In this document: piece after piece, positions 1,704 through 20,000 of the stretch
Layout of the letters: each line of letters opens with the position of its first letter
Numbering within the stretch: position 1 is the first letter of the stretch
Origin: Archaeoglobus sp. JdFR-37
GTDB taxonomy: Archaea > Halobacteriota > Archaeoglobi > Archaeoglobales > Archaeoglobaceae
DNA length: 20,000 nt
Direction of reading: 5' to 3'
Assembly (NCBI GenBank): GCA_002010215.1
Contig: MTMY01000004.1
Location: 119,758-139,757 of the forward strand
The notes under the pieces: model-generated
What the model was told of the DNA's origin: nothing
The model's database searches: none
Seen by the model: only the letters and a program-made list of their open reading frames with translations
Made by a program: the position numbers and the translations under genes

Positions 1704-1717
1704 TTGAGGTGTGATGG

Positions 1718-2770: not shown

Positions 2771-2772
2771 AG

Positions 2773-3024
2773 GTGGAAGATCTCATCTTCGCTGTCATTG
2801 CTGCAGCGACGCTTTTGTTTTCTCTTGCCATATTCCTTGAGAGGGAGATAATGCACTCAGCCGTATTCTTTGCAGTTTCAATGCTTCTTATCGGTGGCGT
2901 ATACGTGCTTCTCGGAGCCTACTTCTTGGCGTTCATGCATGTAATGGTGTACGTTGGTGCTGTTGCAATTCTGATGGTGTTTGCGATAATGGTGACGAGA
3001 AAGGGTGGTATGAATGAGCTTTAG
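2773..3024 (+). CDS. fqoJ: Complex I subunit J, N-terminal half (J1)
   Basis: HSAVFF...YVLLGAYFLAFMHVMVYVGAVAILMVFAIM matches the NuoJ/ND6 TM1-3 motif (VYVGAV). Confidence 0.9.
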   Translation: MEDLIFAVIAAATLLFSLAIFLEREIMHSAVFFAVSMLLIGGVYVLLGAYFLAFMHVMVYVGAVAILMVFAIMVTRKGGMNEL

Positions 3025-3241
3025 AGTGCTGAGAGGTGTAATCGCAATAGCTTTCGGCCTGCTGGCCTACACATTCATATCCGGAGCACCGTTCCCCTCA
3101 GAAATACTGTGGGTACCTAATGTAGATGAAATAGGTGCAGCGCTTTTCAAGATATACGGAGTTCCCTTTGAAGTTGCATCTTTGATAATAGTCGTGGCAG
3201 TTTTTGCAGCCATCTATCTTGTCAGGAGGGATGTGGCATGA
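3014..3241 (+). CDS. fqoJ: Complex I subunit J, C-terminal half (J2)
   Basis: IGAALFKIYGVPFEVASLIIVVAVFAAIYL matches the NuoJ C-terminal PFE motif; overlaps J1 and K. Confidence 0.88.
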   Translation: MSFRVLRGVIAIAFGLLAYTFISGAPFPSEILWVPNVDEIGAALFKIYGVPFEVASLIIVVAVFAAIYLVRRDVA

Positions 3242-3543
3242 TTCCCCAGAGTTACGTCCTTGCATTCTCCATATTACTCCTCTCCATAGGGGCACTCGGT
3301 GTAATGACCAAGAGAAACCCCATAGTTATGTTGATGGGAATTGAACTAATGCTAAACGCTGCCAACATCAATCTCATCTCATTCTCCCGTCTGTTTCCTG
3401 AAGGCTTTACAGCTCAGGTCTTCGCCCTCTTCATAATCCTAGTTGCCGCTGCAGAATCCGCCATTGCTCTCGCCATAGTTGTCAGGATATTCAGAAATCA
3501 TGGCATCGTTGACATATCGCTGTTTGAAGGACTGAGGTGGTAG
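3238..3543 (+). CDS. fqoK: Complex I subunit K (NuoK/ND4L)
   Basis: KRNPIVMLMGIELMLNAANINL and VAAAESAIALAI; ATGA overlap with J2. Confidence 0.95.
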   Translation: MIPQSYVLAFSILLLSIGALGVMTKRNPIVMLMGIELMLNAANINLISFSRLFPEGFTAQVFALFIILVAAAESAIALAIVVRIFRNHGIVDISLFEGLRW

Positions 3544-3563
3544 GTGATAGGTAGGTGATAGAG

Positions 3564-6883: not shown

Positions 6884-6884
6884 G

Positions 6885-8288: not shown

Positions 8289-8878
8289 TGTTTGATATAC
8301 TCTTTTAGAAGGAGCAGTGCTTCTTTTTCCCTTTTTCCACCGCATTTTTCTATGATTTTCTCTAGCTCAAGGATTCTGGATGCATAATTCGGGTTGAGGT
8401 GTAAGCGGGTGGCATAGATGAGGGCCTCAATCAGAAGGTTGAAGCCCCGGTTAACCGCCCTAATCTCCCGTTTGAGTACTTTCCCCTCCTCCAGCCTCAG
8501 TTTTATCACTCTACCTCTACCACCCTTCTCCAACTTTCCAGAAAAGCGACATACTGTTAGTGCTCCCTTCAAAATTGGAGGCTGGAGGCTTTCATACCAC
8601 TCCCTCCCCGGGTCCTCGAAGGCTGAAATGACAAATAGAACAGGATCGTGAATGACGTTCACCCATAGCTCACCACTTCTCTCAAAATTTTCTCTAGTAT
8701 GGTTTGAATATAACCTTACTTCAGCATCAATTCCTGATTCATCCCCTACTATCAGTCCCAGAGGTGCTGCATTCAAATTGAACTCACCAGACTCAACAGA
8801 CAATACTCCATGAGTTATCCCGATCACTTCATTAATACCCTCTTTCAGCCCCAAATCGGAAAGTTTCATGAGCTTCAT
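8279..8878 (-). CDS. DUF447 family protein (split-barrel fold; family associated with archaeal C1-cofactor genes)
   Basis: INEVIGIT...NAAPLG...RLYSNHTRENF...NVIHDP...NRGFNLLIEALIYATR pattern recalled for DUF447; ATGA overlap with the upstream CitG-like gene. Confidence 0.75.
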   Translation of the reverse strand: MKLMKLSDLGLKEGINEVIGITHGVLSVESGEFNLNAAPLGLIVGDESGIDAEVRLYSNHTRENFERSGELWVNVIHDPVLFVISAFEDPGREWYESLQPPILKGALTVCRFSGKLEKGGRGRVIKLRLEEGKVLKREIRAVNRGFNLLIEALIYATRLHLNPNYASRILELEKIIEKCGGKREKEALLLLKEYIKHQG

Positions 8879-9723
8879 GGTCTCAGCCCCTCCAGAAGAG
8901 CCAAGTAAATTGATGAAATCGTGAGGTCTGCCACACTTCCAGGATTTGCTCCCATTTTGAGGAGTTTTTCATCAAGCTCCCTGAATACCTCAATACCTCT
9001 ATCTTCATACCTCTTCACAGCTTCCTTTGCCATATCTCTCACTTTAATTGCTGTGTTAAATCCGAGTTTAGAAATTATTAGAGGATCAATTAGTTCTGAA
9101 AGAAGATGGTGGTATGTTAGAACTATGGCTCTATTCAAGTCTTCTTTGGCAAAGTAGAGCAATAACTCCATCCCTTTGAGGCTCAGAGGATACCCTTCCA
9201 CCAGTTCTCTGGCTATGAAATTCTCCTCTGGAGCAAGTTTCATCCATTCATAGAGATTTAGTCCTCGAATTTCGTCTTCTTCACTCTCCAGACTCTTTTC
9301 AGCAGCATCCATAACTCTAGCACCGCTCAGCCTGAAGGCCCGCATGACATACTGGCAATCCCCCTCATTTCCCTTGAGGGTTTCAACCGCTGACCTAGCA
9401 ACACTCCAAGCATCACCGGTATCCCATTTCATAATGAGGGGTATCAGCAATAAAAAAGCTCCAAAATGGACGTTTCCGGCTTTTTGCCACTTGAGAGAAT
9501 TCTCAACGCAGAGGTAAACTAGCTCTCCAACGCTTCCATCCTTTTCTGCCGCTCTTAAGAAAACAGGAAAAGCTGCAGAAGATGAAGCAAGAAAATGCTC
9601 ATATCTCAGGTCGCTAAAGTTATGATCCCTGTCCACATTTCCTGCCTTCGGGCTGCCTGATACCTCCAAAAGCATTGAAAGAGTTGCAGCGATTGCAGCA
9701 TCCTGGCTGCTTTTGAAAGGCAT
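8875..9723 (-). CDS. citG: CitG family triphosphoribosyl-dephospho-CoA synthase-like protein (archaeal type)
   Basis: LLEVSGSPKAGNVDR, GNVHFGAFLLLIPL, DPLIISKLG, NPGSVADL. True start most likely ATG 9723 (TTTTATA box at 9751-9745), not 9843. Confidence 0.85.
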   Translation of the reverse strand: MPFKSSQDAAIAATLSMLLEVSGSPKAGNVDRDHNFSDLRYEHFLASSSAAFPVFLRAAEKDGSVGELVYLCVENSLKWQKAGNVHFGAFLLLIPLIMKWDTGDAWSVARSAVETLKGNEGDCQYVMRAFRLSGARVMDAAEKSLESEEDEIRGLNLYEWMKLAPEENFIARELVEGYPLSLKGMELLLYFAKEDLNRAIVLTYHHLLSELIDPLIISKLGFNTAIKVRDMAKEAVKRYEDRGIEVFRELDEKLLKMGANPGSVADLTISSIYLALLEGLRP

Positions 9724-9744
9724 GAAGAAGATTGATAAAGGATG

Positions 9745-9751
9745 TATAAAA
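9745..9751 (-). promoter_or_regulatory. Probable TATA box of leaderless citG-DUF447 transcript
   Basis: TTTTATA 22-28 nt upstream of ATG 9723; no RBS visible. Confidence 0.5.
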
Positions 9752-9885
9752 TTCTTGGTTCCTAAGTATGCTGTTGTTTTGGGTTGCGGATTCTGACTCT
9801 GGATGGGGCCTAAATGGTGAAGTGTGACGAGAAGTCGTAACACCTAAAATCTCACTCCGCTGACAAATTCCGAAACACGTAAAAA

Positions 9886-9892
9886 TTATTAA
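9886..9892 (+). promoter_or_regulatory. Probable TATA box of leaderless mqnP transcript
   Basis: A-rich BRE-like tract then TTATTAA 22-28 nt upstream of ATG 9914; no RBS. Confidence 0.45.
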
Positions 9893-9913
9893 TTCACCAC
9901 TTTTTCGCCTTCT

Positions 9914-10783
9914 ATGCTTCACAAACTCAGACTTTACGCTGATTTCATCAAAATTGAACATACTTTATTTGCCCTCCCTTTCGCCTATGCAGGAGCTTTG
10001 CTGGCAGCTGAAGGGTGGTTTGGATGGAGAATATTCATTCTGATACTCACAGCCTTTACAGGGCTGAGAACTGCAGCGATGTCCTTCAACCGGATAATTG
10101 ACAGAGAGATCGACGCAAAGAATCCAAGGACAATGTACCGCCACCTTCCAGCAGGGTTGATATCATTGAGAGAAGCCTATACGATTGCCACAATCTCATT
10201 AGCTGTCTATTTCCTCTCCGCATATTTCATCAATGAAACTGCCTTTCTGCTCTCACCCATTCCAGCCATAACTGCTTATGTTTACCCTTACCTCAAAAGA
10301 TACACATGCCTTTCCCACTTCGTTCTGGGCCTCAATCTTGCCTATGCTCCCGGAGGTGGGTGGGTTTCCGTTACAAATTCGGTTGACATTTTTGGCAGTG
10401 AATTTGTTCCCTTTATCCTTGGAATCGCCGTAATTTTTTGGGTTGCAGGCTTTGATATGATATATGCTCTGCAGGACGTGGAATTCGACAAAAAGTATGG
10501 TCTGCACTCCCTACCAGCACATTTCGGAGAAGAGTTTGCAGTGCTAGCATCAGAAACCTCCCATGCTGTATTCTTCCTGCTACTACTGATTTCATTCGCC
10601 GCTTATGGATTTGATGCTATCTTCAAAGCAGGCTTGGTAATAATTGCCATACTACTAGTGATCGAACACTACATAGTCAGAACAGGTGTTGATGAAAAGA
10701 GAATCCAGATTTCTTTCTTCTATCTGAATGCAGCTATAAGTGCCACATTGCTTCTATCCATCGCTATTGGGACTATTCTTTAG
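9914..10783 (+). CDS. mqnP: UbiA-family prenyltransferase, MqnP type (futalosine menaquinone pathway)
   Basis: IKIEHTLFALPFAY N-terminus, NRIIDREIDAKNPRT, YPYLKR, WVAGFDMIYALQDVEFD Asp-rich motifs. Confidence 0.85.
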   Translation: MLHKLRLYADFIKIEHTLFALPFAYAGALLAAEGWFGWRIFILILTAFTGLRTAAMSFNRIIDREIDAKNPRTMYRHLPAGLISLREAYTIATISLAVYFLSAYFINETAFLLSPIPAITAYVYPYLKRYTCLSHFVLGLNLAYAPGGGWVSVTNSVDIFGSEFVPFILGIAVIFWVAGFDMIYALQDVEFDKKYGLHSLPAHFGEEFAVLASETSHAVFFLLLLISFAAYGFDAIFKAGLVIIAILLVIEHYIVRTGVDEKRIQISFFYLNAAISATLLLSIAIGTIL

Positions 10784-11476
10784 CCTTCTATCCTTAGCAT
10801 TCTCAATAGCTTTCTCAATGGCTCTCTTATGAACATTTGCCGCTCTGTGGATTTTCCCGTCGATACCACGGGATGCGTAGCACGGATAAATCTGGGTAAA
10901 ATATCCAGCCTTACTGGGGGCTTCTTCAACGCTTATACCCTCGAGCCTTTCAGCCACAAAGAAGCTGCTGCCGCATATAGCACCTCTTTTAACCCTCACT
11001 TCCTTGATTTTCCCATCTTCTATCTCAACTTCGAACTCTGGCATGCCATAGGCTTCGATGAATTCACTGATGTCTTCATCCTCGATGTATGGTGTGGCGC
11101 AGCAGATGTCTTCCCACAGCACTCTGATGCCATATCTGCCAGCAACCTCTTTTATCTGGGCTCTGGATCCGCTTTTAGAGCCTCCTGGCAGAATTACCAA
11201 CCTCGCCCCCTTCTCGGCTGCAAGCTTTATTATCTCGAGGTTTATGTCTGGATGTAATGCATAGCTTATGAGGATGTTTGCAGAAAGCACTTCTTCAGGT
11301 ATTGATTTCACTATTTCCTCAGGCTCGTCAATCACCGGTGGAAGATTTGTCGGCAACTCGTAACTTACAATATCGAAACGTCTTGCAATCATTTCCATTG
11401 CTCTTTTCCCGTACTTTCCCCTAAGCAGTATTCCGATTTTCAGATTATTCTTAGAGGTTTGGGAGGCTTTGGTCAT
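10754..11476 (-). CDS. DUF166 family protein (conserved Cys/His; function unknown)
   Basis: GKYGKR, LPPVIDEPEE, HPD, DICC, GAICGSSFFVA, YPCYASRG, IHRAANVH pattern recalled for DUF166; ATGA overlap with cooC stop. Confidence 0.7.
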   Translation of the reverse strand: MTKASQTSKNNLKIGILLRGKYGKRAMEMIARRFDIVSYELPTNLPPVIDEPEEIVKSIPEEVLSANILISYALHPDINLEIIKLAAEKGARLVILPGGSKSGSRAQIKEVAGRYGIRVLWEDICCATPYIEDEDISEFIEAYGMPEFEVEIEDGKIKEVRVKRGAICGSSFFVAERLEGISVEEAPSKAGYFTQIYPCYASRGIDGKIHRAANVHKRAIEKAIENAKDRRLKNSPNSDG

Positions 11477-12219
11477 GATATCATCCTCATTAAGTTCTCC
11501 TTAATCTCGATAAAGGGATCGAGTCTGCAAACTCTGTATGGCGGTTTGTTTTCAAGGTCTGCCATAACAAAGCATTGATCGTAGGGTATTATTCCAAGCA
11601 GCGGATGCTCTATCTCCTCAACCAGCTCTCTCGCCTTCTCACTCTCCACAAATTTGTTGACTACTACTGCAATTCTCTCAATTCCTATATCGCTGGCAAG
11701 CTTCTCAATTCTTTTCAGGGTCTCCACTGCTCTGCTTCCGGGCTCTATCACAGCAATGAGGATATCAACTCCCTTAGCAGTTCCCCTGCCAAGATGCTCT
11801 ATCCCTGCTTCCATATCCAGCAGCAAAACATCCTTTTCTTTAAAGATGGCGTGTCTGAGTATGGCACGAAGAAAGGCGTTTTCAGGGCAGAAACATCCTT
11901 CTCCACCCTTCTCAATAGTTCCAAGCACCAAAACCCTCACACCATCGTCATTTTTAACGCTGTACTCTTCAAATATATCATCTACTTTGGGATTGAGCTT
12001 GTAAGTACCAAGAGGGCCATAAACCCTCTCTTTAATAACATCTTCAAGTTCGGACAAAGGGGTGACCCTGTCCTTAACGCCAAGAGCTGACGGGAGGTTA
12101 ATTGAGGAATCACAATCTATAGCCGTAACCCTGTATCCATCCTTGGCAAGGAGGTAGGCCAGCACAGCTGTTAGGGTTGTTTTCCCAACTCCGCCTTTTC
12201 CTGAAATTGCAACTTTCAC
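11473..12219 (-). CDS. cooC: CooC/AcsF nickel-insertion ATPase (CODH/ACS maturation factor)
   Basis: Deviant Walker A SGKGGVGKTT, IDCD, metal-binding GCFCPEN, DMEAGIEHLGRG, VVNK. Confidence 0.92.
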   Translation of the reverse strand: MKVAISGKGGVGKTTLTAVLAYLLAKDGYRVTAIDCDSSINLPSALGVKDRVTPLSELEDVIKERVYGPLGTYKLNPKVDDIFEEYSVKNDDGVRVLVLGTIEKGGEGCFCPENAFLRAILRHAIFKEKDVLLLDMEAGIEHLGRGTAKGVDILIAVIEPGSRAVETLKRIEKLASDIGIERIAVVVNKFVESEKARELVEEIEHPLLGIIPYDQCFVMADLENKPPYRVCRLDPFIEIKENLMRMIS

Positions 12220-12245
12220 AAAATCCCCCTCGACGGGAGGATTTT
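12220..12245 (-). promoter_or_regulatory. Inverted repeat directly upstream of cooC GTG start
   Basis: Minus strand AAAATCCTCC-CGTCGA-GGGGGATTTT-GTG: 10-bp stem with one G-U pair. Confidence 0.55.
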
Positions 12246-12258
12246 AACATTTGTGGAA

Positions 12259-12439
12259 TTTTGCATGTTTTTGCATCTGGCTACGTTGGACCTTCCTTGG
12301 ACCTCACGTTGGATGCATTTGGTACAGATGCCTAGATGACCTAGATGACAGTACTACATAATCATGACATTGTTGAATATTGTTGAATACTAAATTCTAA
12401 AAACGGGGTGCCGAAAATTGTTGACGGCGGTGACGGCGG
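12259..12439. repeat. Series of unrelated short tandem duplications
   Basis: TTTTGCAT (12259, 12269), TTGGACCT (12286, 12297), CCTAGATGA (12331, 12340), ATTGTTGAAT (12369, 12379), TGACGGCGG (12422, 12431). Confidence 0.75.
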
Positions 12440-12471
12440 GAATGGTGCTACAACTACCAGCGGCACCCCAT
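12399..12471 (-). ncRNA. Candidate ~70-nt small RNA closed by a 9-bp GC stem
   Basis: GGGGTGCCG (12405-12413) and CGGCACCCC (12461-12469) form a perfect inverted repeat. On the minus strand it is preceded by CCGCAACACTTATCAA (BRE/TATA-like) and followed by TTTTT. Confidence 0.4.
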
Positions 12472-12603
12472 TATATACTTCAACGTAATGTTGATAAGTG
12501 TTGCGGTGGATTGGTAAAACATGCAATTACTCTTAAGCCTCATTCTTTCATTTTCAACAGTTAAGAAAAAAGCTTAAATTGTATGAGGTGTCTGGTCTTC
12601 TGG

Positions 12604-12990
12604 ATGAAATACTTAGCTATTGCAGTGATTCTTGCTATTGCGATAACTCACGTAAACGCCTATTACGGAGTTAATGGAACAAAAGTAGAGTTTCAGTACT
12701 CTCTTAGCCCTTTTGAGAAGCTTACTATATTCCTTTTCGGAGCTGAAGATTTGAAAGACAGAATCCTCTCACTTGTAAATTCTACATCCTACGAAATTCT
12801 GAACATCGGTTACGATTCTGCAACCCTTCTGTTTCCTGTTAGCTACATTAACGGGACGTATTTCTTTGAAGGAGTCGAGCTGAATGAGGAGATGAATATA
12901 ACTCTCTATTACCCCGGAAACGTGACTTTAGAAATCTATTCTTCTAAAATTCCAGCCTCAGCTATCACTTCTCTTGAGCTGGAAGTTTAA
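12604..12990 (+). CDS. Small secreted/surface hypothetical protein
   Basis: Signal-peptide-like MKYLAIAVILAIAITHVNA; five N-x-S/T sequons; AAAAAGCTTAAAT promoter-like box 12567-12579 favours ATG 12604 over 12583. Confidence 0.7.
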   Translation: MKYLAIAVILAIAITHVNAYYGVNGTKVEFQYSLSPFEKLTIFLFGAEDLKDRILSLVNSTSYEILNIGYDSATLLFPVSYINGTYFFEGVELNEEMNITLYYPGNVTLEIYSSKIPASAITSLELEV

Positions 12991-13615
12991 TCACCCTTTT
13001 GATATAGACAGGAGGGATTTCTTCAGCCAAAGCGATGAAGCTATTGACCTTTATTATCCTTATTCCTTCTTCCCTGGCCCTCTTGGCGTCGATCTCCAGT
13101 ATCATGGGCTCATCGGTTCTTAGTCTAGCAACCTCCTCACTCTTCTCAATAGTCGTTGAAAGGTGGACATAAGTCTGGTTGACAGGCTTTATGCCTATCT
13201 CCAGCAACCTTATGGCCTCTTCCTCACCTGTTCCATAATACAGAACTTCCTCCTCAGCAGGTGGATAGTCTGAAAGTTTAACCTTCACGCTATGACCATA
13301 CTTGGCTCTGATCCTATCTCCCTTCAGCTCATACCTCTGCTTGGGATCACTGTACACCAGTGCTTTCACAAGCCACTGATTTGCCCACTTATATTTCCTC
13401 CTGACAGCCCTGACGAGGGCATCAAAGCTAACCCACCCATCTTCATCCATTTCTATCCCAAATCTTTCGGGAAAGTGCCTGAGAATTCCGGAAACGAACC
13501 TGCCAAGCTTTTCGACTCCGTCCTTATTTAGAATAACTTCTCCTCTGTAATCGCACTCAGGGCAGTTTTCACCCCTATAAAAGCCGTGTTCTGGGCAGAT
13601 TCTTATGTCTTCCAT
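12965..13615 (-). CDS. kptA: RNA 2'-phosphotransferase (Tpt1/KptA) with N-terminal Cys/His zinc-ribbon-like motif
   Basis: SGILRHFP, KQRYE, RIRAKYGHSV, YVHLS; the Arg-His-Arg-Arg catalytic set is present. Confidence 0.92.
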   Translation of the reverse strand: MEDIRICPEHGFYRGENCPECDYRGEVILNKDGVEKLGRFVSGILRHFPERFGIEMDEDGWVSFDALVRAVRRKYKWANQWLVKALVYSDPKQRYELKGDRIRAKYGHSVKVKLSDYPPAEEEVLYYGTGEEEAIRLLEIGIKPVNQTYVHLSTTIEKSEEVARLRTDEPMILEIDAKRAREEGIRIIKVNSFIALAEEIPPVYIKRVIKLPAQEK

Positions 13616-14117
13616 GATCTCTCACCATCCAAAGCAGTGCCGAAATTGCCCCCATCGCGGAACATGTTTCAAGACTTACCCCACTGAACGTGACATCAAG
13701 GTGATACTTTGAACTTTTCAGATATTCTTTAGGTAAACCCTTTCTCCCAAGACCGATTAAAAATGTTGCGGATGAGTCCAGAAGTTTCCAAAGAGATTCC
13801 ATGTCCAGCCTCTTTTGCTGGCTGGGCTTTGATGTAGTTGCAACCACAGTTCCGAAGTGGGCCGGGATTTTTTCCACTAGGTGCACCCACCCCTTCTCCA
13901 GCAGTTTTACCGCATACTCACCATGCTCTCCAATGGTTGTATACTCCCTTACAGCCTCAATCATCTCCTCCTCCCTCTCCCAGAAGTCAAAGTCAAGGAG
14001 GGCCAGATGCATGTTGTAAGCATAGCATAGAGGTGCAGCTCTTGCTATACTTCTCAGATGAATTTCGTGGAGCTTGAGCTTGTCATAGGTGTTTACGAGG
14101 CAGAGGGTTATCATCAT
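13575..14117 (-). CDS. DUF531 family protein, predicted SPOUT-class RNA methyltransferase
   Basis: VNTYDK, RSIARAAPLCYAY, VATTSKP, LIGLGRKGLP, HLDVTFSGVSLETCSAMG (SPOUT-knot-like C-terminus). Confidence 0.75.
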   Translation of the reverse strand: MMITLCLVNTYDKLKLHEIHLRSIARAAPLCYAYNMHLALLDFDFWEREEEMIEAVREYTTIGEHGEYAVKLLEKGWVHLVEKIPAHFGTVVATTSKPSQQKRLDMESLWKLLDSSATFLIGLGRKGLPKEYLKSSKYHLDVTFSGVSLETCSAMGAISALLWMVRDHGRHKNLPRTRLL

Positions 14118-14183: not shown

Positions 14184-15845
14184 TCACCTTGCCCCGAAAC
14201 GCTCCCTCCAGTCGGGTATCTCCTTATCCCTGTCCCATCCATGATCTTCCTTCTCTTTCTCTTCCTCCTTAAGCTGCCATTTCTTTATTCTGCCTGTAGG
14301 CGTGTATGGGAAACTCTCAACGAATTCTATGTAGCGTGGAATCTTGAAGTAAGCCACCTTTCCTGCCATGTACTCTATTATCTCCTCCGGCTTTATCTCA
14401 ATTCCTTCCTTGGGCTTGATGAATGCTTTTATCTCCTCTCCCCTTAGCCTGTCTGGAACTGGCACAACAGCGACATCCTGAACCTTTGGATGGCTCTTGA
14501 TGACGTCTTCAATCTCCCAGCTTGCTATATTTTCCCCACTTCTCCTGACTATGAACTTCTTGCGGTCAACAAAATAGAGGTAGCCATCCTCATCCATCGT
14601 GACAAAATCTCCGCTGTAGAGCCAACCGTCTCGAATTGTTTCAGCCGTCTTTTCTGGGTCTTTCCAATATCCCAACATCTGAGCAGGACTTTTTCTTATC
14701 AGCTCTCCTACCTTGCCCCTCTCCACTTCATTCCCAGCTTCGTCCACAACCTTCACTTCATGCCCCAGATCAGGGAATACTGGTACTCCAAAGCTTCCAA
14801 TCTTCTTGTAGGGATGGGGCGGATTCAGGCATGGCAGAGGCTCCTCTGTCTGGCTGTAGCCTTCAAGCACCTCAACACCAAACCGCTCCTCAAACTTGAG
14901 CCAGATTTCCTTGGGCATTCCGCCTATTATCACGTATTTTGCAGGGTTATCCTTCTCGAATTCGGTAGGAGGTAAAGCGTAGAGTATGTTGGCCATTGAA
15001 CCGAGCAGATTGAAGGCTGTGGCTCCATATGTTGATACGTCCTCCCAGAATTTGGATGCAGAGAAAATGCTCCTTAGAGTTATCCTTCCGCCTGCAAACA
15101 TCATGCCAAGACTGGAATATATCTGGGCGTTGATGTGGAAGAGAGGCAAGCCAGTATAATCATTGTCATCCTCGCCGATCATCCACAGCGTGATGGCCTT
15201 TGCAGAGAGAGTGTAGGAGTAGTTTGAGAGGACAGCACCCTTGGGCAGCCCTGTTGTGCCCGAGGTGTAGATTATCGCCACAGGATCATTTTTCGAAATG
15301 CTCACATCCGGGTTCTTTGTTGAGCCATCAAGTTGGTCGAGAGTCTGATATTCTGATGAGTCGCCCCTCACAATGATTCTTTCCAGATGTGGAAGCTTAT
15401 CCTTTATACTTTCCACAATGGGGAGCAAATCCTCCTCAACTATTATCGTTGAAGACTCGCTGTTCCCGATAACATGCCTTGCGTCAAATTCGCGATAAAA
15501 CCAGTTTACAGGCACCTCAACAGCCCCAATTTTCGCGCATGCATAAATGCACCGCAGATAATCCAGAGAGTTTCTCAGATACAGAGAAACCCTGTCACCT
15601 TTTTTAACACCTAAATCCATCAACGCATTCCCTATTCTGCTGGCATCTCTGTTCAGCTCCTCATATGTGATTTTTTCTCCTGTATCTGCGAATATAGCGT
15701 AATCTTTACTCCCATTAAGCTTAGCAGCAGCCTCAACCGCTTCTTTAACAGTGTCAGCCCTGGCCATTTCCTCCGGCAGATTTTTGATGGCATAGCTATA
15801 TGTGGGCCATCCTGCCAGCTCGCCTTCCTTTATAATAAAAGAGAT
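14184..15845 (-). CDS. AMP-forming acyl-CoA ligase, CaiC-like subfamily; first ATG is 15767 but the frame is open to 15863 and a probable ATC start lies at 15845
   Basis: YTSGTTGLPKG, LPLFHINAQ, FSASKFW, EGYSQTE, GWLYSGD, DRKKFIVRRSGENI, TPTGRIKK. Confidence 0.93.
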   Translation of the reverse strand: MSFIIKEGELAGWPTYSYAIKNLPEEMARADTVKEAVEAAAKLNGSKDYAIFADTGEKITYEELNRDASRIGNALMDLGVKKGDRVSLYLRNSLDYLRCIYACAKIGAVEVPVNWFYREFDARHVIGNSESSTIIVEEDLLPIVESIKDKLPHLERIIVRGDSSEYQTLDQLDGSTKNPDVSISKNDPVAIIYTSGTTGLPKGAVLSNYSYTLSAKAITLWMIGEDDNDYTGLPLFHINAQIYSSLGMMFAGGRITLRSIFSASKFWEDVSTYGATAFNLLGSMANILYALPPTEFEKDNPAKYVIIGGMPKEIWLKFEERFGVEVLEGYSQTEEPLPCLNPPHPYKKIGSFGVPVFPDLGHEVKVVDEAGNEVERGKVGELIRKSPAQMLGYWKDPEKTAETIRDGWLYSGDFVTMDEDGYLYFVDRKKFIVRRSGENIASWEIEDVIKSHPKVQDVAVVPVPDRLRGEEIKAFIKPKEGIEIKPEEIIEYMAGKVAYFKIPRYIEFVESFPYTPTGRIKKWQLKEEEKEKEDHGWDRDKEIPDWRERFGAR

Positions 15846-15868
15846 ACTACCACCCCCAAACCTTTAAC

Positions 15869-15901
15869 CTTTTATAACTATTATTTATGAGCAAATACAA
15901 A
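15869..15901 (-). promoter_or_regulatory. 33-bp promoter/operator cassette, copy 1 (upstream of CoA ligase)
   Basis: Minus strand TTTGTATTTGCTCATAAATAATAGTTATAAAAG; 29/33 identical to + strand 16666-16698. Confidence 0.75.
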
Positions 15902-15919
15902 TCCTTTGAGTCCTTATTT

Positions 15920-15936
15920 TGAGCATACTTTGCTCA
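15920..15936. promoter_or_regulatory. Palindromic operator candidate TGAGCA-N5-TGCTCA
   Basis: TGAGCA 15920-15925, TACTT, TGCTCA 15931-15936; the same hexamer recurs at 15888, 16631, 16641 and 16674. Confidence 0.6.
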
Positions 15937-16061
15937 TGCAGGTTAGAAAACTCCTTCCAGGGATTTTTTGACTCAAATATGGCTTATAAGCCCTCACAGA
16001 AAGGAAAATCCCTATGAATCTCTCCGAAAATCTTTTGAAGTAAGATTGTAAATTCAATATC

Positions 16062-16619
16062 ATGCCAAAAAGGCGTTTACAAACAACTCTTAGTGAAGAA
16101 GCTTTTAAAATCATCGAAAAGTATCGCTCCAAATACGGCGGGATGAATGAGGTGATTGAGGAGGCGCTTAAACAGATGGACAGCGGTTTGAACAGGTTAA
16201 GTGAGAATGACAGGTTGCTTATGGATTTGATAAGAAGTCTGGATTTCACTGCATGTGGTAAAAACCAATACCTCTATCTGATTCTCGGTGACAGGAAAAA
16301 GGCTGTTGAAGAGAGCATGATGGAGACTGCAGTTGAATGGTATCTTAAAAAGCCACTCAAAGAGACAACTCTGGAAGAGTTTCTCAGAACCGTTGAAAAT
16401 GGTTGGAAAGCCCTCAATAGAGTTGAATACGTTGAGATAACAAAAGGTGAGAACTGGATCCAGTGGCTCTGCTACCATACAATGCGCCACAGAGAGGTGA
16501 GTGAGTTCTTGGCGAGACACATCACGTACATCTACGAGAAGTATTTTGCCAACGAGTGGGATATTGTAGAGAACATAACTCCTAACGGTTTCCTTCTGAA
16601 GTTTTACAGAAAGGGATGA
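16062..16619 (+). CDS. Putative transcription regulator: N-terminal ribbon-helix-helix plus C-terminal possible ligand-binding domain
   Basis: KRRLQTTLSEEAFKIIEKY...GGMNEVIEEALKQM fits the strand-helix-helix RHH pattern; sits between divergent catabolic genes; TTTTGAA box at 16033-16039 suggests a leaderless mRNA. Confidence 0.65.
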   Translation: MPKRRLQTTLSEEAFKIIEKYRSKYGGMNEVIEEALKQMDSGLNRLSENDRLLMDLIRSLDFTACGKNQYLYLILGDRKKAVEESMMETAVEWYLKKPLKETTLEEFLRTVENGWKALNRVEYVEITKGENWIQWLCYHTMRHREVSEFLARHITYIYEKYFANEWDIVENITPNGFLLKFYRKG

Positions 16620-16629
16620 TTACTTTTAT

Positions 16630-16698
16630 ATGCTCATAAATGCTCATCACTATTTGACAAACTGTTTTGTATTTGCTCATGTATAATTATTATAAAAG
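16630..16698 (+). promoter_or_regulatory. ATGCTCAT direct repeats plus 33-bp promoter/operator cassette, copy 2 (upstream of thiolase-like operon)
   Basis: ATGCTCAT at 16630 and 16640 (10-bp period); TTTGTATTTGCTCATGTATAATTATTATAAAAG at 16666-16698. Confidence 0.75.
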
Positions 16699-16709
16699 AG
16701 GTGTTGCTC

Positions 16710-17789
16710 TTGAAAGTGGGTATCGTTGGCATCGGCATAACCCATTTTGGCGTTCATGAAGAGCCCTTTTACAACGTCGCCTATACTGCAGCAAGGAAGG
16801 CATTAGAAGATGCGGAGATGGAAAGGCATGAGATTGATAACGTAGTTCTGGGGGGATACGATGTTTCTGTTGGAAGAACAATCTCCAACATGTACACCGC
16901 TCCGGCCGCAGGCGGATATCTCAAGGACGAGATAAGAGTAAGCGATGATGCTGCTTACGCATTGGCTCTGGCATACATGCGTATAAAATCCGGGATTTTC
17001 GACGTTGCAATGGTTCTCGGCTACGGCCACTGTTCAGAAACACCCATTGAACTTGTTGAGCTTCTGAGCCTCGACCCATTCTTCCACAGAGACTTAGGCA
17101 TATCCTACCAGATGAGCTACGCCATGCAAAGCTATGCTTACAAGATGAAATACGGTGTGGAAGACGAAACTGCAGCAGAAGTAGTAGTGAGAGCAAGAAA
17201 GAGGGCATCAAAATACGAGTATGCCCATGTGAGAGAAGAAGTGAGTGTTGATGACGTTTTGAGCTCTGAAATGGTCATATTCCCACTCAGGAAGCTTGAG
17301 CTTCCGCCCTGGAGTGATGGGTGTGTGGCTTTAATTCTGGCGGAGGAGACGATTGCAAGGAGGATTAATCCTGAACCCATTTGGGTTGAAGGCCTAGGCT
17401 GGAACACCGAAAACTACTACATGGGGAGCAGAGATCTGGCAGAGCTCTCTTCTACCAGAAAAGCCGGTGAGATGGCCTATAGGATGGCTGGATGCGATGC
17501 TAAAAGCGTTGAGGCTGTAGAAATCATGGATTTAACTCCATACCACCACCTCATGGCATTGGAAGCTCTGGGATTTGCTGCTGATGGTAAAGGAGGAGAG
17601 CTTATCGAGTCTGATTTCCCCACCAACAGCTCTGGTGGAGCCCTCTGTACCAATGCTCATGGCACAACAGGGCTATTCCTGACAGCAAACTTGGCGCTTC
17701 AGATTAGGGATGGATGTGATAGGGGCATCAGTCATGCTGTCAGCGGATATGCTGCCCAGAACTCAATTGTGACGATTCTGGGGGTGTGA
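16710..17789 (+). CDS. SCP2/thiolase-fold protein lacking the catalytic Cys, Ltp4-like
   Basis: MKVGIVGIGITHFG, EIRVSDDAAYALALAY (no Cys), SDGCVALIL, NSSGGAL, SHAVSGYAAQNSIV. Start TTG 16710 (RBS GAGGTG 16698-16703). Confidence 0.85.
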   Translation: MKVGIVGIGITHFGVHEEPFYNVAYTAARKALEDAEMERHEIDNVVLGGYDVSVGRTISNMYTAPAAGGYLKDEIRVSDDAAYALALAYMRIKSGIFDVAMVLGYGHCSETPIELVELLSLDPFFHRDLGISYQMSYAMQSYAYKMKYGVEDETAAEVVVRARKRASKYEYAHVREEVSVDDVLSSEMVIFPLRKLELPPWSDGCVALILAEETIARRINPEPIWVEGLGWNTENYYMGSRDLAELSSTRKAGEMAYRMAGCDAKSVEAVEIMDLTPYHHLMALEALGFAADGKGGELIESDFPTNSSGGALCTNAHGTTGLFLTANLALQIRDGCDRGISHAVSGYAAQNSIVTILGV

Positions 17790-17791
17790 GA

Positions 17792-18955
17792 ATGAGAAGA
17801 GCTGCTGTTATTGGAGTTGGACAAACAAAATTCAGAACCAGGAGAGACGACAAAACTCATCCGGAGCTTACCAGAGAAGCTGTTTCCCGAGCTCTGGAGC
17901 ATGCAGGCATAACAATGGATGATGTTGATGCCTTTGTGTTCGGCACCATGGACCCCTTCGACGGAATAAACTGCCCAGACAGATGGAGCTCAACTGCTGC
18001 AGGCTTCGGAAAGCCCTTCATGAAGATCAGCACCGGCGGAACAACAGGTCTTACAACTGGAATAGCCGCTTACCAGCACGTTGCAAGCGGGCTGTTCGAT
18101 GTGGTTGTTGCAGTTTGTACTCAGCGTGTGGGAGAGAATGTGGATGCCCAGCCAGTTCTGAACACAGCTGTTGATCCAATCTATGAGAGGCATTCTGGAG
18201 TTGGGGCCATAAGCGTCGCAGCCATCCAAGCTACAGTCCACATGCAGAAGTATGGCACGACTGAAGAGCAGATGGCATGGGTTTCGGTGAAGGACCATGA
18301 GAATGCTCTAAAGAACCCGTATGCCCACATCAAGAAGAAGATAGGTGTTGAAGACGTGCTTTCCAGCCCCGTTGTTTCATCTCCTCTAAAACTCTACGAG
18401 TGCTGCCCCAGAAGCGATGGTAGCGTAGCTGTGATCTTTGCATCCGAAGAAAAAGCAGAGCAGATAAGAGATGACCCAGCTTGGATTCTTGCCGAGTCAT
18501 CCATAAGTGATTCCTATTTCGTCGGAGATCGCCCGGATCTGGCAGTCTGGGATTCCCTGAGCATAGCTGGAAGGCGATTGTACAGGCTTGCGGGCATAGA
18601 TGATCCAAAGAAGGATATAGATGTTGCCGAGCTTTACTCGCCCTTCACTATTCAGGAAATTCTTGAGCTTGAAGCCCTTGGTTTCGCTGAGAAGGGCGAA
18701 GGTGCAAAGCTTGCTGAGGAAGGTGTTACATTCGTGGATGGAGATATGCCTACCAATCCTTCTGGCGGAGTTCTCTGCACAAATCCCATTGGAGCTACAG
18801 GCCTGGTAAGGCTTGGAGAGGCTTCGCTTCAGGTGATGGGAGAGGCAAGCAATCAGGTTGATGGAGCTGAAGTGGCATTAGCCCATGCATGGGGTGGCAC
18901 ATTACAATTCCATGCCTTAATGCTGGTTTCAAGCCATAAAAAGCTCAGGAGGTGA
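17792..18955 (+). CDS. SCP2/thiolase-fold protein lacking the catalytic Cys, Ltp3-like (putative aldolase subunit)
   Basis: VIGVGQTKF, KISTGGTTG (no Cys), KNPYAH, PRSDG, DVAELYSPF, NPSGGVLCTNPIGATG, AHAWGG. Start ATG 17792 (RBS GGGGGTG 17780-17786). Confidence 0.88.
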   Translation: MRRAAVIGVGQTKFRTRRDDKTHPELTREAVSRALEHAGITMDDVDAFVFGTMDPFDGINCPDRWSSTAAGFGKPFMKISTGGTTGLTTGIAAYQHVASGLFDVVVAVCTQRVGENVDAQPVLNTAVDPIYERHSGVGAISVAAIQATVHMQKYGTTEEQMAWVSVKDHENALKNPYAHIKKKIGVEDVLSSPVVSSPLKLYECCPRSDGSVAVIFASEEKAEQIRDDPAWILAESSISDSYFVGDRPDLAVWDSLSIAGRRLYRLAGIDDPKKDIDVAELYSPFTIQEILELEALGFAEKGEGAKLAEEGVTFVDGDMPTNPSGGVLCTNPIGATGLVRLGEASLQVMGEASNQVDGAEVALAHAWGGTLQFHALMLVSSHKKLRR

Positions 18956-18959
18956 TGTT

Positions 18960-19415
18960 ATGGTTTTGAGGATTGAGGCGAAATGGGAAATTCCCTACGT
19001 GCATTCTGCTGGAGAACACGCAACAAAATTCTTCGAGGCTTTGAAGGAGAAGAAGATTCTGGGTGTGAAGTGTCCAAAATGTCAGAGGGTGCTTGTCCCT
19101 CCAAGGGCTTTCTGCGAGCGCTGCTATGTTGATACGGATGAGTGGGTTGAGGTGAAGGATGAGGGAGTTATAGAGACAGTAACAATCAACTACGCCCGTT
19201 TTACAGGATTGCCAGACCCTCCTTATGCTGTTGGCATTATAAAGCTGGATGGAGCGGATACAGGAATGCTGGCATATCTTGGAGGCGTTGACCTCACAGA
19301 CTGGAAGAAGGCCCATGAGAAGCTGAAGGTTGGAACGCGCGTTAAGGCTGTATGGAAGGATAGGCCGGAAGGCAGAATTACGGACATTCTTTACTTCAAA
19401 CCGGTGGAAGAATGA
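18960..19415 (+). CDS. DUF35 Zn-ribbon + OB-fold acyl-CoA-binding protein
   Basis: ILGVKCPKC...PPRAFCERC, PYAVGIIKLDGAD, KVGTRVKAVW; RBS GGAGGTGA. Confidence 0.92.
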   Translation: MVLRIEAKWEIPYVHSAGEHATKFFEALKEKKILGVKCPKCQRVLVPPRAFCERCYVDTDEWVEVKDEGVIETVTINYARFTGLPDPPYAVGIIKLDGADTGMLAYLGGVDLTDWKKAHEKLKVGTRVKAVWKDRPEGRITDILYFKPVEE

Positions 19416-19864
19416 TTGGAGAGGGTTGGTATTTCGAGGATTATGAGGTGGGAAGTGAGATTCGAAGCAACTCCAGAACAATAACCGAAGCAGATATTGT
19501 TAACTTTGCGGGCATAACTGGAGACTGGAACCCCCTCCACACCGACGAAGAATTTGCCAAGAAAAGCGTTTTTGGAAAGCGAATTGCCCACGGAACCCTG
19601 ACGTTCGCCATAATGACGGGTTTGCTGGCCAGACTCGGGATTATAGAGAAAACAATCGTTGCTTTCTACGGCGTTGATAAGCTACGCCTCACAAAGCCGG
19701 TTTTCATTGGAGATACGCTTACAGCCATTGCAAGAGTGGTTGAAAAGGAGGATAGGGGCGATGCGGGCATGATTGTAATGGAGGCTGAGGTTGTTAACCA
19801 GCGTGGCGAGGTTGTTCTCACTAGTATCCTCAGATTTCTGGTTAAGAAGCGTGGAGATGGGTGA
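19412..19864 (+). CDS. MaoC-family (R)-specific enoyl-CoA hydratase/dehydratase
   Basis: YFEDYEVG, RTITEADIVNFAGITGDWNPLHTD, RIAHG, PVFIGDTL; catalytic Asp/His present; ATGA overlap with DUF35. Confidence 0.92.
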   Translation: MIGEGWYFEDYEVGSEIRSNSRTITEADIVNFAGITGDWNPLHTDEEFAKKSVFGKRIAHGTLTFAIMTGLLARLGIIEKTIVAFYGVDKLRLTKPVFIGDTLTAIARVVEKEDRGDAGMIVMEAEVVNQRGEVVLTSILRFLVKKRGDG

Positions 19865-19914
19865 TTACACAACTGGAGCCAAAATGAGGCTATATAAATT
19901 AGGAGGTGTAAAAA

Positions 19915-20000
19915 ATGGATTTCAGGCTGACGGATGAGCAGAGGATGATTGCGGATGCGGCTAAGGATATAGCTAAGGACTTCCCGCCGGAGTACTGGAG
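19915..20000 (+). CDS. Acyl-CoA dehydrogenase, N-terminal fragment (runs off window)
   Basis: AGGAGGTG RBS at 19901-19908; translates MDFRLTDEQRMIADAAKDIAKDFPPEYW, a typical ACAD N-terminus; not in the supplied ORF track. Confidence 0.8.
   Translation, partial: MDFRLTDEQRMIADAAKDIAKDFPPEYW

Follow-up and report, generated by a model that had tools for sequence, protein, structure and literature searches.

Ltp3 and Ltp4 (Rv3523-Rv3522; the Rv numbers for the Ltp genes are taken from a table in PMC6429209) belong, with the double-DUF35 protein Rv3521, to actinobacterial sterol side-chain catabolism. In a review (PMC6678751) the pair is described, on the basis of genetics, as a heteromeric aldol-lyase for the C24-branched sterol side chain, the chemistry itself being only deduced. 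Two related aldolases, Ltp2 with ChsH1/ChsH2 (TcLtp2, 6ok1) and the bile-acid aldolase Sal with Shy (CtSal, 9myr), combine a thiolase fold, Gly in place of the nucleophilic residue and a DUF35 partner (ChsH2 and Shy, respectively). The essential catalytic base in both TcLtp2 (YDHF) and CtSal (YDCY) is the Tyr that opens the motif equivalent to HDCF (PMC12329534); the acid in Sal is Cys304 of YDCY. Both enzymes are homodimers in which DUF35 is fused to a hydratase, of the MaoC type in Sal, and in the Ltp2 pathway a MaoC hydratase and an acyl-CoA dehydrogenase (ACAD) act earlier.

The window analyzed here, the whole 20,000-nucleotide stretch from Archaeoglobus sp. JdFR-37, encodes a comparable trio, consisting of two thiolase-fold proteins (A and B) and a DUF35 protein. 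The most likely role of the cluster, judged from its sequence, is that A, B, the DUF35 protein, a hydratase and a dehydrogenase would split a hydroxyacyl-CoA by aldol chemistry, as in the bacterial sterol-degrading relatives. In common with Ltp3-Ltp4 the window has two adjacent thiolase-fold subunits without Cys, the Ltp4-like one preceding the Ltp3-like one, and a DUF35 partner. B and Ltp3 share YxPF, NPIGA[ST]G, HA[WY]GG and Gly or Ala for the nucleophilic Cys, A and Ltp4 share DAA[WY]AL and HAxSG, and a one-residue deletion before Asn is common to both pairs. Unlike Ltp3-Ltp4, the window pair has an archaeal host, no sterol-catabolic context, and a stand-alone MaoC protein of the homomeric type and a single ACAD as neighbors; its DUF35 protein is single-domain (151 aa) and encoded downstream, whereas that of Ltp3-Ltp4 is a double-DUF35 protein of 340 aa encoded upstream. 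B resembles Ltp2 and Sal in fold, in Gly for Cys, in the Tyr and in the DUF35 partner, but reads YSPF where Ltp2 has YDHF, and has Pro or Ala at the position of the Sal acid.

True thiolases with a free-standing DUF35 protein belong to the same subfamily as A and B by sequence and fold, but carry Cys, His and Cys where A and B carry none of them. The Friedel-Crafts acyltransferase PhlABC (5m3k) resembles the trio in having two different thiolase-fold subunits and a DUF35 protein. We take Cys88 of PhlC to be catalytic. The similarity to PhlABC is weak (1.6e-16), and it is the title of a homolog's C88S entry (9skm) that points to this Cys.

Gene content of the window

The genes for A, B, the DUF35 protein and the MaoC hydratase are tightly packed on the plus strand (16701-19864; Table 1), the stop of A overlapping the start of B and the start of the MaoC gene overlapping the DUF35 stop. 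A sequence-only reading of this DNA had proposed a ligase, an acyl-CoA dehydrogenase, a MaoC hydratase and a DUF35 protein as partners of A and B; all are present, and the gene set is conserved in orthologous loci. Pfam and NCBIfam both assign A and B to the thiolase fold. Database names for proteins of these types are "acetyl-CoA C-acetyltransferase" or "thiolase family protein," much as the same reading had expected of automated annotation.

Table 1. Features of the locus, with positions in the window
Feature	Position	Strand	Size	Assignment
AMP-forming acyl-CoA ligase	14184..15767	-	527 aa	Pfam AMP-binding and AMP-binding_C; upstream of operon, divergent
AF_0136-family protein	16062..16619	+	185 aa	nearest ESM Atlas clusters PF27313 AF_0136_C, score 0.94
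Protein A, thiolase-fold, Ltp4-like	16701..17789	+	362 aa	Pfam: only Thiolase_C_1 passes
Protein B, thiolase-fold, Ltp3-like	17786..18955	+	389 aa	best NCBIfam PRK08313
DUF35 protein, zinc ribbon and OB fold	18960..19415	+	151 aa	Pfam zf-ChsH2 and OB_ChsH2_C
MaoC-type (R)-specific enoyl-CoA hydratase	19412..19864	+	150 aa	Pfam MaoC_dehydratas, 119 bits
Acyl-CoA dehydrogenase, start of gene	19915..20000	+	first 28 codons	translation MDFRLTDEQRMIADAAKDIAKDFPPEYW

The Cys4 ribbon of the DUF35 protein is intact, with Cys38, Cys41, Cys52 and Cys55 invariant among 31 sequences. The protein is a presumed scaffold for the A/B pair. The best NCBIfam matches of the MaoC hydratase, the C-terminal part of PaaZ (86.6 bits) and RipB/Ich (78.1 bits), are each below cut-off; its translation contains GDWNPLH, presumably the hydratase-2 motif. 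The ligase likewise scores below the cut-offs of its best NCBIfam families, PRK06155 (414 bits) and PRK06187 (412 bits), and orthologs with 78-81% identity adjoin the trio in related loci L015, L017 and L019. The ACAD gene is partial in the window because the contig stops at 20000; its remainder aligns to another contig of the same genome (C47). The gene is complete in orthologous loci, with three ACAD domains in L015 and L016. A Pfam-A search with the AF_0136-family protein returned no match. Its gene is kept beside the cluster in L015, L016 and L019 and occurs in 8 of the 40 loci of at least 10 kb; the protein is possibly a ribbon-helix-helix regulator.

Kinship and active-site residues of A and B

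Family scores, a phylogenetic tree and a topology test were used to place A and B relative to Ltp4 and Ltp3. The reference proteins from Nocardia farcinica were identified by NCBIfam scores above cut-offs (596 bits for Ltp4 and 750.4 bits for Ltp3) and by the neighboring genes, one of the Rv3520c family and one encoding a double-DUF35 protein. The best curated family of B is Ltp3 (NF006180/PRK08313), at 357.7 bits and below the cut-off of 514. The best NCBIfam match of A is PRK06066 (191.9 bits), and A scores 154.7 bits against the Ltp4 family (NF005924/PRK07937) over positions 34-349 of 353, below the cut-off of 419. B and N. farcinica Ltp3 share a clade of 16 rows (support 97/98, starred), and A groups with N. 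farcinica Ltp4 (93/98, unstarred). A further starred clade (99/94) unites Ltp2 with all of the Cys-less proteins and leaves out seven other thiolases, six of them Cys-bearing. Grouping B with the Cys-bearing thiolases is rejected by the AU test (p 0.008), the constraint group having been chosen after inspection of the tree and restating what the sequence-only reading had named as its refutation, namely that the proteins group with canonical thiolases. The Ltp3/Ltp4 likeness claimed in that reading thus stands as regards the best family of B, the shared motifs, the tree and the AU test, but the scores below cut-off and the different DUF35 arrangement set the window pair somewhat apart. Sequence and fold searches give another ranking: with B as query the true thiolase 7yvy (2e-55) scores ahead of TcLtp2 (6ok1, 1e-30), and Foldseek places solved true thiolases above the aldolases, with Ltp2 at rank 14 and Sal at rank 32.

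The residue comparison used HMMER alignments to two solved thiolases (7yvy and 6esq) and a MAFFT alignment that included Cys-bearing paralogs from the same genome. The loops on which the sequence-only reading had based the loss of the nucleophilic Cys (RVSDDAAY in A, ISTGGTTG in B) are found in the translations, as are ELYSPF of B and the C-terminal motifs HAVSG..QN of A and NPIGATG and HAWGG of B, and the alignments agree that both proteins lack the nucleophile. In place of the Cys of AACA[ST]G, B has Gly84, and A has no Cys loop. At the HDCF motif B reads YSPF and A reads MDLT, neither with the Cys, and the His of GHP is replaced by Asn in both, within TNAH in A and as Asn333 within NPIGATG in B. 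A canonical SCP2/archaeal-type thiolase was considered and rejected, since the fold fits but the Cys nucleophile, the HDCF Cys and the GHP His are absent from A and B.

In the Cys column, the 76 B-type relatives have Gly in 61 cases, Ala in 14 and Cys in one; Tyr284, which opens the HDCF equivalent, and Asn333 are each conserved in 75. None of 63 A-type relatives has the Cys loop, and Asp83 is conserved in 62. Because the loss recurs across both sets of relatives, it cannot be put down to chance or to sequencing error. Certain motifs are invariant in B and peculiar to it (MDPFDG, TGGTTG, QRVGE and CCPRSDG), and B is far better conserved than A: identity to Chloroflexi relatives is 55-60% for B vs. 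43-47% for A, and Asgard relatives of B fall in the same 55-60% range. This difference, with the invariant motifs, argues for a working active site in B. It also bears on the idea that A and B are a non-catalytic, scaffolding or regulatory pseudoenzyme pair that, together with the DUF35 protein, organizes the MaoC hydratase and other enzymes. Such a role would suit the degenerate state of A, of which Pfam passes the C-terminal thiolase domain only, the loss of every thiolase catalytic residue, and the existence of DUF35 scaffolds such as the archaeal KT/DUF35/ACR/MaoC complex (bioRxiv 10.1101/2024.07.05.601840). We nevertheless regard it as improbable, given the identity of B across domains of life, the activity of its relatives Ltp2 and Sal as enzymes, and the invariant Tyr284, Asn333, Gly85, Cys207 and His181 in thiolase active-site loops, none of which a pure scaffold would need.

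In the alignment B lacks the second catalytic residue of either aldolase: Tyr344 of Ltp2 aligns with Asn333, and Cys304 of Sal with Pro286 (Ala in 30 of the 76 relatives). An ortholog of the thiolase linked to HMG-CoA synthase, encoded in the same genome, is also without the Cys, having Asp there, and this is conserved in three relatives; a missing Cys alone is thus weak proof of lost thiolase function in this lineage. In the AlphaFold model pLDDT falls below 50 in the motif-bearing loops (57-67, 195-208, 281-287 and 325-334), so that its geometry is uninformative on the active site.

Neighborhood of the trio in related loci

Related loci span Archaeoglobaceae, Asgard and other archaea, and Dehalococcoidia and other bacteria. 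Where the locus leaves room, a thiolase-like ORF lies directly upstream of the B-type gene in 54 of 55 and a DUF35 gene directly downstream in 63 of 64. A double DUF35 gene lies upstream in 9 of 12 Ltp3-type loci vs. none of 68 B-type loci. Among the 40 loci of at least 10 kb, 26 have an ACAD gene, 15 MaoC, 6 crotonase, 4 SDR genes and one a 3-hydroxyacyl-CoA dehydrogenase, the last count depending on a single blastp seed at E<1e-6. Pfam annotation of the orthologous loci found no 3-hydroxyacyl-CoA dehydrogenase. As the trio in Archaeoglobaceae is accompanied by a dehydrogenase and an (R)-hydratase but not by this enzyme, it would be expected to act on a 3-hydroxyacyl-CoA rather than on a 3-oxoacyl-CoA.

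Thiolase-like, DUF35 and MaoC proteins also form the core of the Sulfolobus fatty acid synthase complex, and many KT/DUF35 pairs occur per archaeal genome (bioRxiv 10.1101/2024.07.05.601840). The cluster might by this analogy be a biosynthetic module working in the condensing direction, with a ketothiolase/DUF35 unit and a MaoC dehydratase. The archaeal complex, however, requires an active ketothiolase, an NADPH-dependent ketoacyl-CoA reductase (SDR) and an MDR enoyl-CoA reductase (bioRxiv 10.1101/2024.07.05.601840), whereas both thiolase-like proteins here lack the nucleophile, Pfam annotation of the window and of L015-L017 shows neither SDR nor MDR genes, and the neighboring AMP-forming ligase and ACAD are catabolic enzymes. 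A biosynthetic role is accordingly considered highly improbable.

Genes for acetoacetate-CoA ligase, class I CoA-transferase pairs or hydantoinase A/B lie near the trio in 14 of the 68 related loci. The neighboring acetoacetate-CoA ligase is above its NCBIfam cut-off in all three cases tested, and the hydantoinase A/B genes are three-subunit sets resembling acetone or acetophenone carboxylase. Such neighbors fit a ketone or a 3-oxoacid as product. The acetoacetate-activating neighbors would equally fit a role in acetoacetyl-CoA cleavage. The β-branched substrate suggested in the sequence-only reading draws indirect support from these gene neighbors in relatives and none from the window's own genome, where no homolog of acetoacetate-CoA ligase, class I CoA-transferase or hydantoinase A/B was found.

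The same neighbors make up a gene set for acetone or acetoacetate use, in which a thiolase normally acts last, and so lend weight to the view that the trio performs another acyl-CoA reaction, neither retro-aldol nor classical thiolysis. Examples would be decarboxylation of malonyl- or 3-oxoacid-type thioesters, or acetoacetyl-CoA cleavage by direct attack of CoA, with no acyl-enzyme. The only activity shown by TbSLP, a solved relative without the Cys, is slow malonyl-CoA decarboxylation (PMC12329534), B has neither of the proton donors known from Ltp2 and Sal, and the HMG-CoA-synthase-linked ortholog has likewise lost its Cys. This view is considered unlikely, although less so than the two preceding ones: the literature searched, with other aims, offered no precedent for Cys-free thiolysis, the gene context in Archaeoglobaceae predicts a 3-hydroxyacyl-CoA substrate, and the conserved Tyr of B matches the aldolase base.

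Proposed lyase reaction

On the evidence of genes and residues it is probable, in our judgment, that A, B and the DUF35 protein constitute a heteromeric retro-aldol lyase that follows the dehydrogenase and hydratase steps; we infer in this way the formation of the complex, its chemistry, its proton donor and its substrate. The ligase would make an acyl-CoA, the ACAD would convert it to a 2-enoyl-CoA, and the MaoC hydratase would add water to give a (3R)-hydroxyacyl-CoA. The predicted complex would then cleave the C2-C3 bond directly, with no prior oxidation to a ketone and no acyl-enzyme, releasing acetyl- or propionyl-CoA together with a ketone, an aldehyde or a 3-oxoacid as the carbonyl product. 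B would be the catalytic subunit, its Tyr284 taking the hydroxyl proton as do Tyr294 of Ltp2 and Tyr302 of Sal, and A would be a diverged subunit completing the thiolase-type dimer, with the DUF35 protein stapling and shaping the whole.

A wider and more tentative reading, about which we are rather doubtful, is that heteromeric thiolase-fold C-C lyases may form a large family, so far unstudied, of which the trio would be the founding example in archaea. Such enzymes would give anaerobes a dehydrogenase-free ending of β-oxidation for tertiary 3-hydroxyacyl-CoAs through a third catalytic solution beside those of Ltp2 and Sal. The anaerobic hosts of the family would include Archaeoglobaceae, Asgard, Bathyarchaeia and Thermoplasmatota, as well as Dehalococcoidia, Desulfobacterales and other bacteria. 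Substrates might be of the isovalerate, 3-methylglutarate or citramalate type and products a ketone or 3-oxoacid plus acetyl-CoA, the ketone being salvaged in some lineages by the adjacent acetone-carboxylase-like enzyme and acetoacetate-CoA ligase. Catalysis would then rely on Tyr284 plus a proton donor other than a Tyr or the HDCF Cys.

All thiolase-fold aldolases in the literature searched come from Actinobacteria or Proteobacteria and have steroid side chains as substrates. A relative conserved across domains in hyperthermophilic and other anaerobes cannot concern sterols, so that the chemistry would extend to acyl-CoA catabolism in general. If the proposal is correct, a systematic misannotation of such proteins as acetyl-CoA acetyltransferases would be corrected, a small thermostable system for studying the function of Ltp3-Ltp4-type heteromers would become available, and anaerobes would have a route for degrading branched acids that lie beyond the reach of ordinary β-oxidation.

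Organization of the operon and its surroundings

Two thiolase-fold proteins that lack the nucleophilic Cys, A (362 aa, Ltp4-like) and B (389 aa, Ltp3-like), are encoded in the terminal 20 kb of a contig (C2) of an archaeal assembly of 1.97 Mb that is 94.5% complete. Together with the DUF35 gene that follows them they form a trio, after which come genes for a MaoC hydratase and an acyl-CoA dehydrogenase (ACAD). The genes for A and B overlap by 4 bases, as do those for DUF35 and MaoC, and B is separated from DUF35 by a gap of 4 bases, and the genes are therefore regarded as a single operon. The rest of the dehydrogenase gene was found on another contig of the same genome (C47). Past the window end, contigs C47 and C40 carry this remainder, then an ORF of 117 aa and a pair of adjacent CoA-transferases of the CaiB type (family III), whose nearest family is succinyl-CoA:mesaconate CoA-transferase, below its cut-off. 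The same pair follows the ACAD gene in a sister MAG (L038:12058-14702).

Features of the cluster in window positions
Feature	Position	Strand	Remark
AMP-forming acyl-CoA ligase	14184-15767	(-)	
AF_0136-family protein, 185 aa	16062-16619	(+)	Pfam-A: no hit
Thiolase-fold protein A	16701-17789	(+)	
Thiolase-fold protein B	17786-18955	(+)	
DUF35 zinc-ribbon/OB protein	18960-19415	(+)	
MaoC hydratase	19412-19864	(+)	
Acyl-CoA dehydrogenase	from 19915	(+)	first 28 codons

The AF_0136-family protein accompanies the cluster within the Archaeoglobaceae. A PDB sequence search returned no credible match for it; its N-terminus resembles a ribbon-helix-helix, and from this likeness it may be the regulator of the cluster. 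Further upstream, positions 1-8288 (+) encode a membrane complex of the Fqo/Nuo kind (F420H2:quinone oxidoreductase type), one subunit of which is FrhB-like. Positions 8279-14117 carry housekeeping genes, for DUF447, CitG-like, UbiA, DUF166, CbiA/ParA-type ATPase, Tpt1 and DUF531 proteins, and a small ORF with a secreted look (12583-12990) lies between the ATPase and Tpt1. Like the membrane complex, these genes are unconnected to the trio.

Active-site residues and kinship with Ltp3 and Ltp4

A and B were aligned with solved thiolases and with four Cys-bearing paralogs from the same genome. The position of the nucleophilic Cys is occupied by Gly in B (STGGTTG against AACA[ST]G), HDCF is replaced by YSPF, and GHPxGATG by TNPIGATG; at the equivalent sites A has RVSDDAAY, MDLT and TNAHGTTG. 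Among 76 B-type relatives the Cys column holds G in 61, A in 14 and C in one, with Tyr284 and Asn333 each present in 75 and Cys207, Phe287, Gly85, Asp211 and Gly212 in all. None of 63 A-type relatives has the Cys loop, and 62 retain Asp83. The sequence-only reading, which had both proteins lacking the nucleophile and expected automated annotation to call them acetyl-CoA acetyltransferases, is thus borne out on both counts, the public labels being acetyl-CoA C-acetyltransferase or thiolase family protein. An AlphaFold2 model of B (15 sequences) reached a mean pLDDT of 70.6 with active-site loops too poor to be of use for geometry, and Foldseek against the PDB recovered the general SCP2/archaeal thiolase fold alone, ranking true thiolases above the solved aldolases Ltp2 and Sal, and was non-discriminating.

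The missing nucleophile bears directly on one rival, a KT/DUF35/MaoC complex of the fatty-acid-synthase type. According to the Sulfolobus preprint (bioRxiv 10.1101/2024.07.05.601840), in which cysteine, aldolase and lyase go unmentioned, such a complex requires an active ketothiolase and reductases. The trio cluster contains neither, and this reading is rejected; it was dropped together with a PhlABC reading because no nucleophile is present in A or B.

No Ltp4 above the family cut-off was found in 14 named control genomes. A tblastn search of a plasmid collection (257 records) with B led to a 2.66-Mb Nocardia farcinica record, in which a Rv3520c-family gene, a gene whose 340-aa product has two DUF35 OB domains, a match to NF005924 (596 bits; cut-off 419) and a match to NF006180 (750 bits; cut-off 514) are consecutive. 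A table in PMC6429209 lists Rv3520c, Rv3521, ltp4 (Rv3522) and ltp3 (Rv3523), and the last two Nocardia genes are therefore identified as Ltp4 and Ltp3. The Ltp2 ortholog in N. farcinica (NF005892, 711 bits) bears YDHF, the motif reported for TcLtp2. This record (NZ_LN868939.1) and an 11.85-Mb Nonomuraea record (NZ_LT559118.1) are filed as plasmids, carry chromosomal gene sets and are almost unannotated; in the Nocardia record these sets are the ltp2, ltp3 and ltp4 loci.

B and Nocardia Ltp3 correspond at the HDCF position (YSPF/YVPF), the GHP position (NPIGATG/NPIGASG) and the C-terminal motif (HAWGG/HAYGG), as do A and Ltp4 in the N-terminal loop (DDAAYAL/MDAAWAL) and C-terminal motif (HAVSG/HATSG). 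All four lack one residue ahead of the Asn. A tree of 41 rows (IQ-TREE, LG+C20), which includes no named Sal, BbsB, SCP2-thiolase or SLP rows, places the B family with Ltp3 and with B-like proteins of Rhodococcus, Streptomyces, Simplicispira and Haloterrigena (97/98, starred), and the A family with Ltp4 (93/98, not starred). The likeness to Ltp3 and Ltp4 proposed from sequence alone stands for the motifs and for the clade of B, is more tentative for the clade of A, and does not extend to family membership: Ltp3 is the best curated family for B, at 357.7 bits against a cut-off of 514, and A, in a full-length match to the Ltp4 family, reaches 154.7 bits against 419. A starred clade (99/94) unites both groups with Ltp2 and with a second Cys-less pair of the same genome, separate from the seven other thiolases of the set, six of which have the Cys and one of which, encoded on contig C17, has Asp. 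Constraining the B family with these seven, a group chosen post hoc, after the tree, and equal to the grouping with canonical thiolases named beforehand as refuting the proposal, costs 22.6 log-likelihood units (p-AU 0.008), and such a grouping is rejected within this set.

Distribution and conserved gene context

Among public records a Geoglobus sp. MAG comes nearest, its B protein being 96% identical, which places the organism in the Archaeoglobaceae. A search of 24 further genomes of the family found orthologs of A (58-88% identity) in six, and in those six the set ligase-A-B-DUF35-MaoC-ACAD is conserved, which upholds the gene set originally proposed. A wider scan (one genome per species) covered the best 80 of 133 relatives, split at 44% identity to B. 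The archaeal hosts among these 80 are Archaeoglobaceae, Bathyarchaeia, Thermoplasmatota, Thermoproteota and Asgard; the bacterial hosts include many Dehalococcoidia/Chloroflexi, as well as Bacillota, Desulfobacterales, Acidobacteriota, Actinomycetota, Myxococcales and Dormibacterota. At the 68 B-type loci of this sample, a thiolase-like ORF is the immediate upstream neighbor in 54 of the 55 that leave room for one, and DUF35 the immediate downstream neighbor in 63 of the 64 that leave room on that side. Of its 12 Ltp3-type loci, 9 have a double DUF35 upstream.

Neighbors were counted at 40 B-type loci of at least 10 kb (blastp seeds, E<1e-6): ACAD at 26, ligase at 23, MaoC at 15, crotonase at 6, SDR at 4, and 3-hydroxyacyl-CoA dehydrogenase at one, the last from a single haloarchaeal seed that distant forms may escape. 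CaiB was found near the trio in just 3 of the 40, and a Bbs-like benzylsuccinate route, prompted by the two CaiB-type genes after the ACAD in this genome and the sister MAG, was left as a hint. The trio is also present on plasmids of Haloterrigena, Simplicispira and Streptomyces, and on a Rhodococcus plasmid it is joined by a ligase and a CaiB transferase, as well as by two ACADs and a split MaoC pair. On a Streptomyces clavuligerus plasmid (L037, 3913-10073) a double DUF35, an Ltp4-like and an Ltp3-like gene adjoin genes for a terpene synthase and an acyl-CoA synthetase, a setting that is isoprenoid, not sterol.

Additional Cys-less pairs are found. The second pair of this genome (G000:C14:164-3555, (-)), comprising an A-like member and a B-like member with YDPF and GNPIAA, is followed by two DUF35 genes, and in several Dehalococcoidia loci (L078, L079, L083, L106) the same four-gene set adjoins the trio in divergent orientation. 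In four Archaeoglobaceae loci (L047, L050, L053, L054) a third pair lies 3' of the AF_0136-family gene in the order DUF35-A''-B''-DUF35, the B'' protein bearing YSPF or YAPF and TNAIG. This third pair forms one super-cluster with the trio, and the family has therefore radiated inside the Archaeoglobaceae.

Putative chemistry and substrates

Several neighbors of the trio bear on substrate and product. Unclassified neighbors were clustered and cluster representatives scanned. Class I CoA-transferase pairs occur at 10 B-type loci and acetoacetate-CoA ligases at 11. Three such ligases (L050, L089 and the separately fetched Archaeoglobaceae locus L016) scored 830-877 bits on NF002937 (cut-off 639), and the remaining nine loci were assigned via 47-75% identity. 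Three-subunit hydantoinase A/B sets (~780, 745 and 190 aa) occur at three loci, and match best, below cut-off, the subunits of acetophenone carboxylase and caprolactamase. These sets directly adjoin the trio (L050:241-6931, L054:1-4291, L089:1-5624) in three MAGs, two from Archaeoglobaceae and one from Thermoproteota, and L050 and L089 have the acetoacetate-CoA ligase next to the trio as well. At least one of the three neighbor types is present at 14 of the 68 B-type loci (from the best 80 of 133 relatives). These 14 belong to Archaeoglobaceae, to a single Thermoproteota MAG and to two groups of Dehalococcoidia/Chloroflexi; those of Dehalococcoidia are close kin and not independent. Such neighbors fit release of a ketone (acetone-like) or acetoacetate from a tertiary 3-hydroxyacyl-CoA, e.g., 3-hydroxyisovaleryl-CoA or HMG-CoA, and would equally fit acetoacetyl-CoA cleavage.

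The genome studied here has no homolog of the class I CoA-transferase, acetoacetate-CoA ligase or hydantoinase A/B, and no canonical HMG-CoA lyase above cut-off (best 66.6 against 246 bits), which is compatible with an HMG-CoA-lyase-like role without being evidence for it. Its ACAD is nearest to acryloyl-CoA reductase, non-decarboxylating glutaryl-CoA dehydrogenase and cyclohexane-carbonyl-CoA dehydrogenase, and its MaoC to the C-terminal part of PaaZ and, second, to itaconyl-CoA hydratase RipB/Ich, all below cut-off. Together with the CaiB-type CoA-transferase matches, these similarities point in a different direction from the neighbors at other loci, suggesting short, branched or dicarboxylic acids as possible substrates.

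Solved thiolase-fold aldolases offer a basis for a mechanism. According to PMC12329534, the base and acid are Tyr294 (in YDHF) and Tyr344 for TcLtp2, and Tyr302 (in YDCY) and Cys304 for CtSal; both enzymes have Gly at the former nucleophile position. B retains the base Tyr and the Gly, but unlike Ltp2 has Asn333 at the Tyr344 position and unlike Sal has Pro/Ala286 at that of Cys304; if an aldolase, it therefore would employ a new proton donor. Candidates within B would be the invariant Cys207, Cys/Ser331 and His181; alternatively a donor could come from A, e.g., its Asp83.

A scaffold-only role would suit A and is at odds with the conservation of B. Other chemistry, such as decarboxylation or Cys-free thiolysis, is a less likely reading that gains from the C17 thiolase (G000:C17:8508-9665, (-); L125:3009-4166), which is likewise Cys-less and conserved in three relatives. 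Encoded between HMG-CoA synthase (upstream) and DUF35 (downstream), it reads VEAADASG and HDSF, with Asp for the nucleophilic Cys, Ser for the acid/base HDCF Cys, and the His retained; its orthologs (72-76% identity; G007, G008 and G018, each with one thiolase-like gene) read identically. Full-text literature searches, with most subscription journals outside their scope, returned no thiolase-fold aldolases outside bacterial steroid catabolism and no publication on Cys-less heteropairs of archaea or Dehalococcoidia. The trio is a real and well-conserved feature and, with its activity, subunit roles and substrate all putative, on balance probably represents a thiolase-fold retro-aldolase of a new, heteromeric type.
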